Origin: Octopus vulgaris
Taxonomy: Eukaryota
Direction: 5' to 3'
Assembly (NCBI GenBank): GCA_951406725.2
Contig: OX597814.1
Coordinates: forward strand, 191,208,001 to 191,272,000
DNA: 64,000 nt
Within the stretch, counting starts at the first letter, position 1. Each line of letters opens with the position of its first letter. The notes beneath the pieces were generated by a model, which did no database searches, was not told where the DNA came from, and saw nothing but the letters and a program-made list of their open reading frames with translations. This document shows positions 6,414 through 32,876 of this stretch, in pieces. The position numbers were made by a program, and so were the translations under genes.

Positions 6414-6705
6414 CTGTTGTGTCTGGGGAGAGTCATTTTCTTTTTGTACCTTATTATGTTAGACACTCACTGGTAAAATTTCCACTTTTTTTCTTATTTT
6501 TTAAGAGAGTCAAAACTATTAAAAAGGTTGCAAGATGCAACGAAAATTTTAGGACAATAATAATAAGAAAAAAAGTAGAAATTTTACCAGTGAGTGTGTT
6601 ACATAATAAGGCACAAAAAGAAAATGACTCTCCCCAGACACAACAGAATATGCTTCAATACACGAACTCATATAAAGAATCTTGCAAACCAAATCCAAAA
6701 ACGAA
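6414..6705 (+). mobile_element. Fold-back Penelope-like element with HHR-like motif, flanked by (TA)n
   Basis: Inverted arms ~6414-6500 and ~6560-6646, gttgc-aagat-gcaac-GAAA motif at 6516-6553, unique tail with the shared 32-nt motif. Confidence 0.6.
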
Positions 6706-7794
6706 ATATATATATATATTGTATAATGTAACTATGTCCAATTTGATTCATATAAGACAATTTATGCATAAATTATGCACTTCAACTCACACATTTTGTA
6801 TTAAACATATTTAACACAAATAATTTAATAATATTAATAATAATAACAATAAAAAAATTGCAATTTCGTTTTAAAAACCATGTCCACTGAATTTTATAAA
6901 TATGGAATGTCGCACATAATAAATTCTACATATTTTTTTCGTACAAAGATTGATAAAATATCTTGAAGTTATACTAGTGTGTGTCAACAACCTGCTTACT
7001 GGTGCAGGTCACCAAGGAGAAAAAAAAAGACTTACATACACAGAAAAGTTAGTGAAGTAAGTAAAAGCAAAGAGAAAATATTTTAAAATATATACTAACA
7101 AAGTGCATGACAATATAAAAATAAATAAAATTTCAACACATGTACAAGACAAAAGGCTATGATGTACACAGACAAATGACGGTATGTCAAAACAAAGACA
7201 TGTTATGACATGGTTAAGAGGATTAGCATGAGTGTAGATGTCCATTAGCAATCTGACGGATACTCAGTTAGTTTTGACAATGTCCATTCAGGTGTTTGAT
7301 CAACTAAACTGCTTGATTGTTAAATTAACATGTGGCTGAGTATTCCACAGACATATGAACCCTTACTGTAACTCTCAGGCTATGCATACATGACAGAATA
7401 TGTGACAAGCTGGACCTTTGAATTACAAGTACAAATAATTCAACGGGCTTCCACACAGTTTCCATTCACCTAATTTGATGTACAAGGTTTAGGTTGATTG
7501 GGAACTGAGCTAAAGGACATTTGCTGAAGATGCTACACAACAGGGTTGAACTCAGTATCTTGTGGTTGTGAAACAAACTTCTTAACCACTTGGACAACTC
7601 GCATGTACACCAGCAATCTAGTAAATATCAACGAGACAAAAATTTAATAAATATATAAATAAATAAATTGAAGGAACTAGAAAAGGTAAACAAAACAATG
7701 GAGCAAAGAGAATAAATATAAAAAAAAAACAATTATTGGTTAATAATTGTAGACTGAATTTTCAAAAATGCTTTACAAAATCTGTTTTTACAAT

Positions 7795-8092
7795 TGTATG
7801 TATATATACATATAGAACATACATACACAAACACATACATACATGTATACACACACACATGCATATATAAGTACAAACATATACATGTGTGTATATGTAT
7901 GTTTATATATATATATATATATATATATATACATATATATATACATATATATATATATATATACACACATATTCACACACACACACACACTTATATATGC
8001 ATATGCATACACATGTATGTATGAATGTGTGTGTGTGTGCGTATATATATATATATATATAACAGCATGTGTGTGCGTGTGTACACACATAC
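7795..8092. repeat. Degenerate (TA)n/(CA)n low-complexity tract
   Basis: Read directly. Similar tracts lie at 46350-46670, 50100-50405, 15409-15466 and 15638-15677. Confidence 0.9.
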
Positions 8093-8936
8093 TCACAATT
8101 TAAAAAATTCAGATTTGAAATTCTTTATTGTTCACAATATAGAAATATAGAAACAGCATTTAGTGCTCAGCAAATTATTTTTCCATTTTTCTCTTCAGTG
8201 AATTTGTAGCATAAATATAAAAAAAAACTTTAAAAAAACACCAAAAACAAAAAACACACACACACACTTAAAAAAACCTAACAAAACAAATGAAAACAAA
8301 CAATGAAAAAAAATTGTTGAACAATCAACTGCAAATTGCAATTATTGGGATTGTTTCATATGCATTTCTCCAATAGTTTTAAAAAGAGTTATTCTTGAGG
8401 AGAAACATGATAATGGACTGAAAGCCTGTTTTAAATTATATACAATGGTAATTTACAGTAATGGCTTTGATTTTTTATCTCTTTTTTTTTTTATATCTAC
8501 TGCAGCTACTAGAAAATATCACAGTATGCTGCAGTCTATCTCACTTTTCAAGATATTAAATAACCCTAAAGATATATTCGCCTGACATCCATGGATGGAA
8601 AGTCAGTTCAGTTAAAAAAAACATAGTAGTTTTGTTCATGGAAGGACTTGAATTCAGTGTCGCAAGCTAATAATACTGATTACAGAACTGAACAGCATCT
8701 CGGTTAAAGTCATAGATTAGTTATAGATAAATGGAATGGGATATTGAGGGTTTATGTGTCTTGGTAATTTCCCCCAGCACAGCAACATCGATGGGATACA
8801 AACGGGTGAATATTCTACCAGTGGACTGACATGTCAACTTAAGCCAGCTGTCAAATCTCATTGGCTATCTTAAAGCAATCAAATTCATGGGTGTAACTGG
8901 TTGTTGGATATCACTCCAAAATAAAAGAACTACTTA

Positions 8937-9100
8937 CCATATTTTAACATGTATAAGGAACCCTCTAATTTTTTGGGCTTAAAATTTGGAAAAAAAGGTT
9001 TTGTAAGGGATTATCATACTATCCATGTATAAGAAACTCCCATATTTTTTTAACATAATTTTTGACAAAGAAAGAGTTCCTTATACATGTTAAAATATGG
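8937..9100. mobile_element. Tc2/pogo-like MITE with right end tandemly duplicated to ~9248
   Basis: TA-ccatattttaacatgtataaggaac ... gttccttatacatgttaaaatatgg-TA. ~9028-9137 is repeated at ~9138-9248. Confidence 0.7.
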
Positions 9101-29976: not shown

Positions 29977-30389
29977 TAGGTGTAGGAGTGGCTGTGTGGT
30001 AAGTAGCTTGATTACCAACCACATGGTTCCGGGTTCAGTCCCACTGCGTGGCACCTTGGACAAGTGTCTTCTACTATAGCCTCGGGCTGACCAAAGCCTT
30101 GTGAGTGGATTTGGTAGACGGAAACTGAAAGAAGTTTGTTGTATATATATATGTGTGTATGTGTGTGTGTGTGTATGTGTTTGTGTATCTGTGTTTGTCC
30201 CCCGAACATCGCTTGACAACCAATGCCGGTGTGTTTATGTCCCCGTCACTTAGCGGTTTGGCAAAAGAGACCGATAGAATAAGTACTAGGCTTACAAAGA
30301 ATAAGTCCTGGGGTCGATTTGCTCGACTATAGGTGGTGCTCCAGCATGGCCACAGTCAAATGACTGAAACAAATTAAAGAGTAAAAGAG
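29977..30389 (+). mobile_element. tRNA-head SINE, family A
   Basis: Full-length match. Confidence 0.8.
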
Positions 30390-30689
30390 CATATGTACAC
30401 ATTGTGCATTGATTCCGCATTAAGCAATCTTGAAAGAAATTCTTTTTGTTCTATTTTTTCTCACTTCTATAGTACACAAACTAAAAAGTTGTCCAGTTTT
30501 TCAAAACACTCCTAAAACCTATCTTTTCTTCTCTTGTTTCATTCCTAAGCTTTGCTGAATCTTTATTACTTTGCTAATGCATCTGCTCTTTCTTGAAAAG
30601 AGTCAGTGATGTTGTTAACTCCTTACTTTTCTTCTTATTTCTTTTTTTTTTTCATATTTGCCAGGTCTGGAGGAAGAGTCGGTGCCCAT

Positions 30690-31340
30690 GGCTTTTACAA
30701 GCCCTCCAATATCAGTGAGGTTGATACCATTTATGTTTTTCTTGAACCTTTGTAAATCAATATCTGCAGGAAAAATTTGAGCAGTGATGGAATTCCAGAG
30801 GGTGGACATTCTGGGGAAGAAGGACTGGCCATAGAAATTAACACAGGGCTAGGAGACTTGGATGCAATAAGGGTGCAAGGAGGAGGACAGATGAGCAGAG
30901 AAGAAAGAAATGCTGGAGTAGAGATAGCATGAACCTGGCCAGTTCCAAGGAGAAGAAACCATTATAGGAACAGTAGAAATGATGGAGTGAGGAGAGGAGG
31001 CAGCTTATTTGTGAGTCAGAAGTTGGAGTATGTCTGTGAGTGACTTTATGCCAGTCAGTTGAGTGGCCCTGTTTTGGATGTCTATATGTGCCCTTTCTGG
31101 ATGTCCATATGTGCAAAAGTGGCACTGACTCAGACATGAGTAATATTTTATTGTGGACCTCAATTGAGGTTTGTACAGTATTAACAGATGTTGGGGGCTC
31201 AGGTACCTTCTTGGTCCTGAAGAAAAGGGCCAATCATTAGAAGGCAACCATGCTATTTAAGGACATGCATTCACCAGCAGAGATCCATAGTAAGACACAA
31301 CAACTGGAGCGATTTTGAGGGCTCTAGCTGAATGATACTC
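30690..31340 (-). mobile_element. CR1/Zenon-like LINE ORF2 C-terminal remnant
   Basis: Frameshifted pieces RRYLSPQHLLILYKPQLRSTIKY.. / IQNRATQLTG..LTDILQLLTH / YNGFFSLELA / WNSITAQIFP...FKKNIN. Confidence 0.7.
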
Positions 31341-32403
31341 ATGATTAAGGTGAGGAGGGAAGTAAGGAAGTTTTCATATGAGTAGCGTTAGTGTTTTCTT
31401 GTTGAAAGAGGTAAGATGAGCTTGTCCTCAGTGGAGAGTGCTTTCAAGATTTGTGTTCATGGAGCCAATGTATGTTTAATATGGGGTGTTTAAGTTGCAA
31501 GTACATGAATCATAGACACAGAATGTTAGGGAAGAGTAATGAGTAGTGACATCCGCATAAAAGTGAATATAATAAGATGTGGTGGCAAGTGTTATTGTCA
31601 GCACATCTTAACTTATTTTTTATTTTATCCTATCATATTATATTATTTTTAGAAATGTTTTTGCAGGGTTTCTATGGTTTTAATACTGGAGATTATGAAT
31701 CTGGAAAAAAGAAAAAAAAAAGAAAATGTTTTGATTCTACAAAATTTTTTCCCCAATTTCAATTTCCCAATAATTGTGTATGAGAGAGATTTATAGTACA
31801 ATTCCATCAGATCACTTAGCTTGTAATTATTAAATCCACTTGCATAAAAAAAAAAAAAAATTTAATGGTATCATTATTGATTCTATTGGTGTGTGTATGG
31901 GAGGTTTATGGTTCAATTTCATCTGAGCACTTGTCTTTCTGTCGTAATTATTAAAACCATTATCCTTGAAAAAAAAAAAAAAAAATTTAATGGTAGTGTT
32001 ATTAATGTCTAACAGTTTTTCTGAATGCAGAAGCAAAAGTTTTCAAGAACTGCTGAATGTTTTCTCAAGTTGAGATGTCACAGAAGGTCTGTATTGCTTT
32101 TAGAATCAGGAGTCCCTAATTTCAAGGAAACTGTTATAATTTTCAATGCAAAGATCAAGTAGAAAATCATATCATGTGCCAGAAATAAGTCTCTTTACTC
32201 TTTTATTTGCTTCAGTCATTTGACTGCAGCCATGTTGGAGCAAATCGACCCCAGGACTTATTCTTTGTAAGCCTAGTACTTATTCTATTGGTCCCTTTTG
32301 CCGCACCACTAAATTACGGGGATGTAAACACACCAGCATCGGTTGTCAAGCGATATTGGGGGGACAAACACACATACACATACATATACATATATATATA
32401 TAT

Positions 32404-32876
32404 ATATTGTTGTATTTAGGAATGGTCATTTTACCAGTTTAGCCAATAAAAACACACGCACTATATATTTAGTGTTACTTTGCTTCAGTGTTATTTATTT
32501 TTTACATTAATCTTAATCTTATTTCGGCCAGAGTTCTTTCGTCACACTCCTGTGACCGCATCAGTGGTCCTTTGTTTTCTTCTTACTTATTTGTGTCTCT
32601 CCTTACTAAGCGGTTAGTAAGGAGAGACACAAATAAGTAAGAAGAAAACAAAGGACCACTGATGCGGTCACAGGAGTGTGACGAAAGAACTCTGGCCGAA
32701 ATAAGATTAAGATTAATGTAAAAAATAAATAACACTGAAGCAAAGTAACACCAAATATATAGTGTGTGTGTTTTTATTGGCTAAACTGGCAAAATGACCA
32801 TTCCTAAATACAACAATATCTGTTTCAACACACGACTTCACATAAAAAATCTTGAACAACAAATATTTAAAAGTAC
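32404..32876. mobile_element. Fold-back Penelope-like non-autonomous element: 206-bp inverted arms with HHR-like motif plus unique tail, inserted in the (TA)n of a SINE
   Basis: Arms 32404-32609 and 32614-32819 with 3 mismatches, loop gcgg. A ~57-nt unique tail follows, and (TA)n flanks both sides. Confidence 0.75.
32653..32697 (+). ncRNA. Variant hammerhead-like motif (mirror copy on minus at 32526-32570)
   Basis: ggacca-CTGATGCG-gtcaca ggag tgtgac-GAAA-gaac-TC-tggcc: 6-bp stem II, short stem III, 3-4-bp stem I, non-canonical position 9. Confidence 0.55.

Follow-up and report, generated by a model that had tools for sequence, protein, structure and literature searches.

What unites several short elements of the octopus genome that carry hammerhead-like ribozyme motifs, differ in most of their sequence, and yet share an ungapped stretch of 32 nucleotides near one end? 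The elements lie in a 64,000-nucleotide stretch of Octopus vulgaris DNA (contig OX597814.1, positions 191,208,001 to 191,272,000; here called the window). The original prediction had interpreted them as unrelated nonautonomous families that carry a common recognition signal for one enzyme. Our analyses indicate instead that the 32-mers are, in all probability, codons of three related Penelope-like element (PLE) families (A, B, and C) bearing their own open reading frames (ORFs), and that the 5'-truncated ends of these elements likely stem from two fixed reverse transcriptase (RT) start points flanking the motif, at a staggered cut of ~12 bp.

The motif and the elements of the window

The four motifs are present and ungapped at 6654, 17680, 23759 (minus strand), and 32824, with pairwise identities of 30, 26, 23, 26, 23, and 21 of 32; the best further motif-like site anywhere in the window reaches 20-21 of 32. 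A position weight matrix (PWM) of the motif gave scores of 38-44 at the four sites, whereas 400 kb of shuffled genomic DNA yielded none above 15.6. The copies with motifs at 6654 and 17680 belong to a single family (A). The elements are as follows, with positions relative to the ORF start given as signed numbers.

6414..6501, minus strand: inverted arm of family A, short-ended and lacking the tail, from ORF nt about +23 to -64
6506..6706, plus strand: family A long-ended arm, a 5'-truncated pseudo-LTR (pLTR) from -117 to about +83, with (TA)n at its end
6516..6552, plus strand: family A minimal type I hammerhead with a U3-A8 core; G5 is A in this copy
6624..6706, plus strand: family A PLE ORF, codons 1-27 (MTLPRHNRICFNTRTHIKNLANQIQKR)
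6654..6685, plus strand: 32-nt motif in the tail, family A codons 11-21
17479..17609, minus strand: family A short-ended inverted arm, -109 to about +23, extending further upstream than its partner arm
17611..17731, plus strand: family A long-ended arm, -39 to about +82, with ATG at 17650 and motif at 17680-17711
17467..17478 (left) and 17732-17743 (right), plus strand: 12-bp target site duplication
23708..23897, minus strand: family B solo long-ended pLTR, -99 to about +91, with ATG at 23798, motif at 23759-23728, and (TA)n flanks
23850..23894, minus strand: family B minimal hammerhead; the family core is G3-C8, with decay at positions 3 and 12 in this copy
32404..32612, minus strand: family C short-ended inverted arm, -183 to +26, with a hammerhead at 32570-32526
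32611..32876, plus strand: family C long-ended arm, -183 to about +83, with ATG at 32794, motif at 32824-32855, and (TA)n next
32653-32697, plus strand: family C hammerhead, C3-G8, with C at position 9
49930..50450, minus strand: fifth copy, family A, short-ended and without the motif; its upstream limit is approximate

The last of these, which the original prediction had not included, has a hammerhead at 50059-50023 and a CA-rich 3' untranslated region upstream. The predicted layout of the others was confirmed in most respects. Hammerhead-like motifs lie 101, 126, and 90 nt upstream of the 32-mer (6516-6552, 32653-32697, and 23894-23850), within the expected ~90-130 nt; the arms of fold-back copies end 4-8 nt short of the motif, which is accordingly outside the inverted arm; and (TA)n begins ~20 nt downstream of the motifs at 6654, 23759, and 32824. 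The motif at 17680 is followed by the 12-bp target duplication instead of (TA)n. Across copies, (TA)n followed the long end in 26/29 cases in family C, 9/29 in B, and only 2/29 in A. It is therefore a family-specific feature and not the general target that had been proposed. The view that the element bodies cannot be aligned survives in part: noncoding positions -120 to -1 align between families no better than shuffled sequences, but families A and C can be aligned past the 32-mer (76% over 74 nt) because their homology spans codons 1-27.

The motif encodes the start of an RT and endonuclease protein

The 32-mer corresponds to codons 11-21 (FNTRxHIKNLA) of a single PLE ORF (codons 14-24 in family B) and is located inside the PLE "tail," between fixed ends at ORF nt +26 and about +82. 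Longer copies of each family continue into an ORF encoding an RT followed by a GIY-YIG endonuclease (EN) at the C terminus, so the motif occurs, in frame, in autonomous PLEs, as had been anticipated. Family A copies L142, L143, and L149 and family B copies L146, L147, L179, and L180 run past the motif into the homologous frame. RT/EN identity between families is 56-64% (C-A, 448/698; C-B, 411/701; A-B, 388/696). An intact 1,309-aa ORF, beginning MTIPKYNNICFNTRLHIKNLAQQ, was found in L127, and one family retains open frames of 1,310-1,312 codons in 10 copies (10 of 150 scored matches were stop-free). The longest open frame in family B is 1,025 aa, and no intact ORF was found among the family A copies examined. 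Two further families, E and F, turned out to be one.

Domain assignments drew on several searches. Pfam matches of the ORF to RVT_1 and GIY-YIG (E of 3e-4 for both) were under the cutoff, a Pfam scan of the whole 1,309-aa protein gave no match, and six homologs yielded a single weak RVT_1 match. The top fold match was telomerase RT (6zdq, E of 7.7e-7), and protein atlas neighbors at 0.96-0.97 similarity bear HTH_animal, RVT_1, and GIY-YIG domains. A PDB sequence search returned weak bacterial RT matches only, and residues 1-250 found no homolog among proteins of 719-2,291 aa. Together with the single ORF joining a telomerase-like RT to a GIY-YIG endonuclease, the 4.7-kb unit has the other features of a PLE, namely, pLTRs that derive from partial tandems and overlap the ORF start, a hammerhead within the pLTR, and an inverted 5'-truncated arm with a one-sided tail and target duplication. 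The PLE-type ends with minimal hammerheads that had been recognized in the window were thus borne out. Since the motif is the start of a PLE coding gene, the short elements are most likely the 5'-truncated pLTR ends of full-length PLEs and not parasites, and the motif is probably conserved first and foremost as coding sequence for the protein N terminus in a lineage of common descent. The corresponding F/Y-x-TR peptide occurs in only 2 of 94 other full-length homologs and is therefore lineage restricted.

Coding need not be the motif's sole function. In a reading compatible with the above, to which we give somewhat less than an even chance, the motif would also be an RNA or DNA sequence bound by the protein that positions both start sites. 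Within the first 150 codons, no other 11-codon window is as well conserved as the motif (nucleotide conservation, 0.79), whose third-position conservation of 0.70 exceeds the next peaks of 0.61. Between C and A, synonymous codons are kept in 9/10 cases, compared with 336/636 elsewhere (P = 0.018), but the window was chosen post hoc, 11 of 622 overlapping windows elsewhere are equally good, and the effect is weak for C-B (5/7, P = 0.15), A-B (4/7, P = 0.32), and the three-way comparison (4/7 versus 102/409). TTC, ACA, CGA, and CTT are constant in six family majorities, apart from a TCC variant in B, and CGA is retained although just 5 of the 101 Arg codons of the C ORF are CGA. PMC11167929 states that a binding motif of PAc, a Poseidon element of Anolis carolinensis, was located within the ORF's first 172 nt and that EN recognition was reported to require the Penelope tail. 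Against a second role, folding of the tail RNA gave z scores of -1.2 to +0.4 with an empty consensus structure, and no stem-loop was predicted at the start sites, in contrast to PAc, for which that report describes an AC-rich one. The motif is also missing from same-clade contigs of other organisms (best PWM score, 0.6; 17 contigs, of which only about four include the ORF start), and 16 Neptune-type loci in the octopus genome lack it as well (best score, 6.1). A cis-recognition role beyond coding is no more than suggestive.

Hammerheads

Neither an Rfam scan of the window at E ≤ 1, which returned hairpin and microRNA noise but no hammerhead family, nor a strict CUGANGA pattern detected the three window hammerheads; the pattern failed because of swaps at the 3-8 pair and an extra base. 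The pair is maintained in natural copies as U-A in A (33/35), G-C in B (20/26), and C-G in C (38/38), and it is kept in families D (14/14), E (12/14), and G (U-A, 4/6). These ribozymes resemble the minimal hammerheads of metazoan PLEs (PMC4209133) in being type I, with an extra base that separates positions 9 and 10.1, G10.1-C11.1, a tiny or palindromic stem III, and a U3-A8 variant. Unlike that set, they include a G3-C8 family (B) and a C at position 9 that is fixed in the youngest family (C; 38/38 and 75/75). No clustering of copy 5' ends is seen at the predicted cut site, and hammerhead mutants of PAc still insert (PMC11167929); predicted cleavage is likely not needed for insertion.

Nearly all two-armed insertions pair one long and one short end

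Copies have one of two end points: ORF nt +26, which precedes the motif by 4-8 nt, or about +82, which lies 20 nt beyond it. Among 34 ORF-selected family C loci, 7 had one end out of view, and the remaining 27 all paired a long end with a short end (27/27). In tail-selected insertions of six families, the partner arm was short in 75/77 cases, the two exceptions being L084 and L262; solo copies with no visible partner include those at 23708 and 49930 in the window and L283. Arm lengths within an insertion are independent, and either arm may be longer: the short-ended arm reached further upstream than its partner in 17 of the 27 and less far in 10, with the most extreme inequality in L137 (5,177 nt for the short-ended arm versus 100 nt). 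Arms meet at junctions with 1-9 nt of microhomology, mostly at unequal positions. Target duplications of at least 8 nt flank 31 of 55 non-TA targets, with a mode of 12 (mismatched flanks average 1.5). In four public runs whose contigs are presumed to be RNA, depth drops at least 100-fold at about +74 to +82, and (TA)n loose ends occur at +82. For a two-end comparison, the pLTR of the octopus Neptune-type element was not located.

The constant pairing of long and short ends, the freedom of either arm to be longer, and the ~12-bp duplications outside (TA)n favor two separate priming events, and the layout likely records two copying reactions begun at opposite sides of the insertion site. The steps, derived from insertion anatomy alone, would run as follows. 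The GIY-YIG domain would nick AT-rich DNA on both strands with a stagger of ~12 bp; each 3'-OH would then prime RT internally on the element RNA, at +82 in one case and at +26 in the other, aided by 2-4 nt of A/T microhomology; and the two incomplete cDNAs would be joined head to head. Similar behavior is reported for PAc (PMC11167929), in which the tail is bounded by two internal RT start sites in the ORF start, both strands are cut and extended, a hammerhead lies upstream, and the target is AT rich. The same report places the PAc start sites at about +111-118 and beyond (+26 and about +82 in octopus) and its ORF start inside the hammerhead, whereas that of the octopus families is downstream of it. 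In addition, Frangieh et al. describe start-site use in vitro without a strand difference, but octopus insertions strictly pair one of each end.

The inverted arm has otherwise been attributed to self-primed fold-back of the first cDNA, with the tail left by endonuclease resolution (Arkhipova et al. 2013, Craig et al. 2021). Such a process would naturally leave one tail per insertion in a single resolution step, and perfect palindromic centers do exist (window 32404; L011, L026, and L027). Partner arms are also closer to each other than to nonpartners (1.46 versus 3.34 differences in 420 nt; n = 24, P = 1e-4), a likeness that fits a shared source RNA and also arm-from-arm copying or later gene conversion. 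However, the short-ended arm contains sequence missing from its partner in 17/27 insertions and at window 17479-17731, and the long-ended arm contains a tail that the short one lacks; therefore, neither arm is generally a copy of the other. Most junctions, moreover, are microhomology joins at unequal positions. As a general rule, fold-back is contradicted by the 17 cases and is unlikely, leaving it a place in the palindromic minority or with trimming after synthesis.

Considerably less probable still is the model in which three unrelated nonautonomous hammerhead families insert into (TA)n and depend, through a common cis signal, on one RT/GIY-YIG enzyme. Copies with an ORF are greatly outnumbered by short ones (834-2,515 candidates per family at first look, and the contrast in depth), and the 5' ends of the latter concentrate around -118 in A and -112 in B, giving SINE-like units that are possibly retranscribed. 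Trans-mobilization by pLTRs and derivation of retrozymes from pLTRs are described in PMC3846280 and bioRxiv 2026.07.22.740005, respectively. Nonetheless, every family has an RT/GIY-YIG ORF of its own with the motif in frame, so the 32-mer is shared by descent; target duplications and arm junctions vary from copy to copy, each junction being unique; copies at these sites form no tandem arrays, unlike retrozymes; and few A copies (2/29) run into (TA)n. Finally, a MITE or Helentron-type DNA transposon end with the motif as transposase site would account for the inverted repeats, target duplications, and AT-rich targets but is ruled out by arms that continue into the RT/GIY-YIG ORF, as well as by random inner and unequal outer arm ends and covarying hammerheads.

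Relationship to known PLE clades

RT motifs A and B' are 117-159 residues apart in the octopus families and their homologs (median, 129; 185 of 268 proteins with both motifs located). A DKS motif is present in 139/157 of the proteins, C-x4-C-x2-C-x7-C spans residues 1183-1199 of the 1,309-aa ORF, and a CX2-5CxxC linker pattern occurs in 73/96 long homologs. Canonical C-terminal EN+ PLEs (PMC3846280, PMC8557442) share the single RT and GIY-YIG ORF with an Asn-rich insert, the pLTR over the ORF start, partial tandems, the inverted arm, the tail at one end, 8-12-bp target duplications, and AT-rich or (TA)n targets; in Adineta Pen2a, the pLTR and tail span the first 12-22 codons (PMC3846280). The octopus elements differ from the canonical ones in their tail (about 56 nt versus 30-40), 1,309-aa ORF, N-rich tract ahead of the RT, and DKS in place of DKG. 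Their A-to-B' distance of about 128 aa also contrasts with about 58-59 in Penelope and an octopus Neptune-type family.

Neptune and Nematis share the C-terminal EN, the CX2-5CxxC linker that precedes GIY-YIG, and cysteines and histidines of CCHH type, and the short linker spacing resembles, by eye, the Nematis rows in Fig. S2 of Craig; both differ in having DKG and no IFD-sized insert. The octopus Neptune-type element is about 26% identical to our families, in patches only, and is on a long branch in a quick tree built with one long-branch outgroup and without named reference elements. Naiad/Chlamys (PMC8557442) share the IFD and a preference for (TA)n but differ in their N-terminal EN, DKA, and lack of a canonical hammerhead, whereas the octopus families have a C-terminal EN, DKS, and hammerheads. 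The Hydra clade (PMC8557442) shares the KDHK string, RW-type motif, and hammerheads but is under 3 kb, with DKT, no IFD, no CCHH, and a CxCX5C linker; the octopus families have a 4.7-kb unit, DKS, a long insert, and cysteines in the GIY-YIG core. By sequence comparison, none of the described clades was found to combine a C-terminal endonuclease with the putative insert of telomerase size that separates motifs A and B', and no literature on a matching clade or on PLE twin priming was found in a search whose scope excluded Repbase, Dfam, and Arkhipova 2006. Tentatively, the octopus families may belong to an undescribed, widespread PLE clade with an IFD-sized insert and C-terminal EN, still active in octopus, that uses asymmetric double priming, with the protein gripping codons 11-21 of its own mRNA and initiating a cDNA on either side of them; because such priming would take place close to the 5' end of the mRNA, SINE-like solo pLTRs would also be made in bulk.

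In sum, the claim of a new system of ribozyme parasites falls, and the window elements represent ordinary PLE end anatomy. That anatomy bears on the open question of how PLEs make inverted pLTRs and one-sided tails: the 27/27 pairing of long and short ends, with independent arm lengths, is a countable rule that separates fold-back with resolution from two internal start sites. A young family with intact ORFs also supplies the existing in vitro assay with a substrate. Should the clade prove new, the occurrence of an IFD-sized insert alongside a C-terminal EN in a PLE would affect the argument on the relationship between PLEs and telomerase.

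Coding origin of the 32-nt motif

The four 32-mers reported in the original prediction lie where it placed them and align without gaps, with 21 to 30 identities of 32 against a window background of 20 to 21. Each is borne by an inverted or solo Penelope-like element (PLE):

6654, forward strand, motif of a family A element
17680, forward strand, motif of a family A element
23759, reverse strand, motif of a family B element
32824, forward strand, motif of a family C element

The hammerhead-like motifs described upstream were likewise found, at 90 to 126 nt in the window, as was the exclusion of the tail from the inverted arm, the arms ending just short of the motif. 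When a PWM of the motif was run over 40 arbitrary 10-kb genome stretches, five sites exceeded the shuffled maximum used as threshold; pseudo-LTR (pLTR) homology lay upstream of all five, a hammerhead pattern accompanied three (1.8% of random positions), and (TA)n followed two (5.5% background). Scaled to 2.8 Gb, this small count of five sites would put the number of 32-mer copies roughly in the tens of thousands. A 99%-identical protein carries the label Octopus vulgaris, and the host is accordingly treated as an octopus.

Genome searches returned 834 to 2,515 first-look candidates per family, and longer A and C copies extended upstream through a 3' UTR into GIY-YIG and RT thumb sequences. At the family C locus L127, the ATG of an intact 1,309-aa ORF (protein P0001) falls within the pLTR, and the motif forms codons 11 to 21; past the motif, A copies and B copies stay in the same frame among the matches listed (40 divergent N-terminal hits). 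In Adineta Pen2a, the pLTR and tail span the first 12 to 22 codons, according to PMC3846280. Three additional families (D, E=F, and G) have the same layout. The reading of the motif as a recognition signal shared by dissimilar, nonautonomous parasite families was rejected, since it lies in frame within an RT/GIY-YIG ORF and the families are homologous, with 56 to 64% identity in the RT and endonuclease regions. The feature in the window is real and is largely accounted for by known PLE biology. Family C is young, as stop-free frames of 1,310 to 1,312 codons hold 10 of 150 scored matches and its copies are 97 to 99% alike.

Domain evidence was weak by Pfam (E of 3e-4, under the cut-off, and no domain match in a whole-protein scan) yet consistent across atlas clusters at 0.96 to 0.97, which carry RT and GIY-YIG families, and with telomerase RT as the best fold match of the predicted protein model. 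Ahead of the RT, P0001 has a long Asn/Ser-rich low-complexity insert (residues ~245 to 500) that preserves the frame and is also open on the opposite strand for ~290 codons; similar N-rich inserts occur in Adineta PLEs. A 98%-identical piece of the family C ORF is contained in a host protein, an octopus dynein regulatory complex subunit 6-like isoform (P0114), reflecting either exonization or an annotation artifact.

Descent and coding constraint explain the conservation of the 32-mer. That it also has a second role as a cis signal, beyond coding, seems about an even chance. At third positions, no other window of the first 150 codons is conserved as well as the motif (0.70 versus 0.61), C and A share synonymous codons at 9 of 10 positions within it and at 53% outside it (P = 0.018), and CGA, a rare codon, is retained throughout, with the caveat that the window was picked after the fact and that 11 of 622 overlapping windows score equally well. 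Synonymous-codon comparisons involving family B were not significant, and RNA folding revealed no conserved fold of the tail. The 32-mer did not occur at 16 loci belonging to a Neptune-type family of this genome or in 17 metagenome contigs of the same clade, although few of these contigs include the start of the ORF. The hammerhead-then-ATG layout is kept in several same-clade contigs. One same-clade metagenome PLE (L321) has an ORF of >1,600 aa with Thr/Ala/Ser repeats and, ahead of the RT, an additional domain that by eye resembles a ULP-type cysteine protease.

Insertion ends and targets

Both outer ends were visible in 27 of 34 family C loci selected by ORF, and all 27 pair one tail-less end at +25/26 with one motif-bearing end at +70 to +85 (relative to the ATG), an outcome with a probability of ~1e-8 under independent choice at equal odds. 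Across six families, the partner arm was short in 75 of 77 tail-selected copies. Four public runs, in which depth drops at least 100-fold around +82 and loose ends of (TA)n appear, confirm the element end at ~+82, not expression. The proposed general targeting of (TA)n did not hold, as such tracts follow the long end in 26/29 C, 9/29 B, and 2/29 A copies. At non-TA sites, target duplications of at least 8 nt (mode, 12) were found in 31 of 55, and mismatched flanks used as the control gave a mean of 1.5 and a maximum of 5.

Such ends probably arise from priming twice, once on each nicked strand, at two start sites bounding the tail. Compared with its partner, the short-ended arm extends further upstream in 17 insertions but stops earlier in 10, so fold-back copying of one arm from the other is not the general rule; arm junctions are mostly 1- to 9-nt overlaps. 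Counting against two primings, partner arms are closer than nonpartners (1.46 versus 3.34; n = 24) and solo copies exist. For Poseidon of Anolis carolinensis, Frangieh et al. (PMC11167929) describe two start sites and extension on both strands without strand preference in vitro, whereas pairing of long and short ends is strict in octopus family C. The one-sided tail is known qualitatively and is attributed, in PMC8557442, to endonuclease resolution.

Within 31 kb (G000:C9:117240499-117271063) lie four family A insertions with identical scores, probably as parts of a larger tandem duplication. Copies of a SINE-like repeat that contains a CA/TA microsatellite, presumably of the octopus OK/OR SINE types, are abundant (window 3129-3311, 17258-17436, 22919-23101, 23509-23690, 32882-33060, and others), and two PLE ends are located in (TA)n adjoining such copies. 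The window also has 184-bp tandem units common to 1792-2291 and 59932-60299, with an inverted copy at 1318-1503.

Hammerheads and upstream signals

All six families match the minimal type-I motif defined in PMC4209133 (Cervera and De la Pena), in that stem III is tiny, G10.1-C11.1 is present, and stem II is preceded by one additional base. Between families, the 3-8 pair covaries.

Hammerhead 3-8 pair by family
Family A: U-A, 33/35
Family G: U-A, 4/6
Family B: G-C, 20/26
Family C: C-G, 38/38
Family D: C-G, 14/14
Family E: C-G, 12/14

Position 9 is C in every copy counted of the youngest family, C (38/38 and 75/75), and a C at this position may impair cleavage. An Rfam scan of the window detected none of these motifs. 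The 5' ends of copies showed no pile-up at the predicted hammerhead cut, in agreement with the continued insertion of hammerhead mutants in vitro, as described in PMC11167929.

In full-length B copies, an ACTAAC resembling a branch point, a run of pyrimidines, and TAG at -130 to -112 (L147, ~570-600) directly precede the point where many copies begin; 6 of 19 incidental B copies begin at -111 to -114, and 10 of 41 A copies begin at -110 to -118. This stretch, which lies a short distance before the hammerhead, looks like a 3' splice site, a feature also of Drosophila Penelope. In family C, 5' ends cluster at -204 to -181, and a TATA-like box lies ~30 nt upstream of the cluster, followed by AAAATGGC, which we take to be a YY1-like motif; the region (-237 to -185; L127:6130-6085, minus strand) is a candidate internal promoter.

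Clade placement

RT motifs A and B' are separated by 117 to 159 residues (median, 129) in the 185 of 268 proteins with both motifs locatable, compared with ~58 in Penelope, ~80 in Naiads, and ~115 to 150 in telomerases (hand count from the text of Craig's Fig. S1) and with 59, by hand, in the Neptune-type control of the same genome. DKS is present in 139 of 157 proteins, and the C-terminal endonuclease follows a linker resembling that of Nematis. Judged by their descriptions in the texts consulted, none of the eight clades matches a long A-B' insert combined with a C-terminal endonuclease, and no description of a clade with this combination was found in a literature search whose scope lay outside Repbase, Dfam, and Arkhipova 2006.

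The genome contains another young PLE family (L403-L418; e.g., L404:4964-7306), which has 781-codon open frames with DKG, GLKF, and a long CxxC linker and is free of an insert the size of the insertion-in-fingers; by these motifs it appears to be Neptune-type, and its pLTR was not located.

Octopus repeat annotation records 31 recently active PLE families, with clade detail not given in the portion of PMC13282606 available. The octopus families described here may possibly form an unnamed PLE clade, set apart from the named clades by their descriptions.
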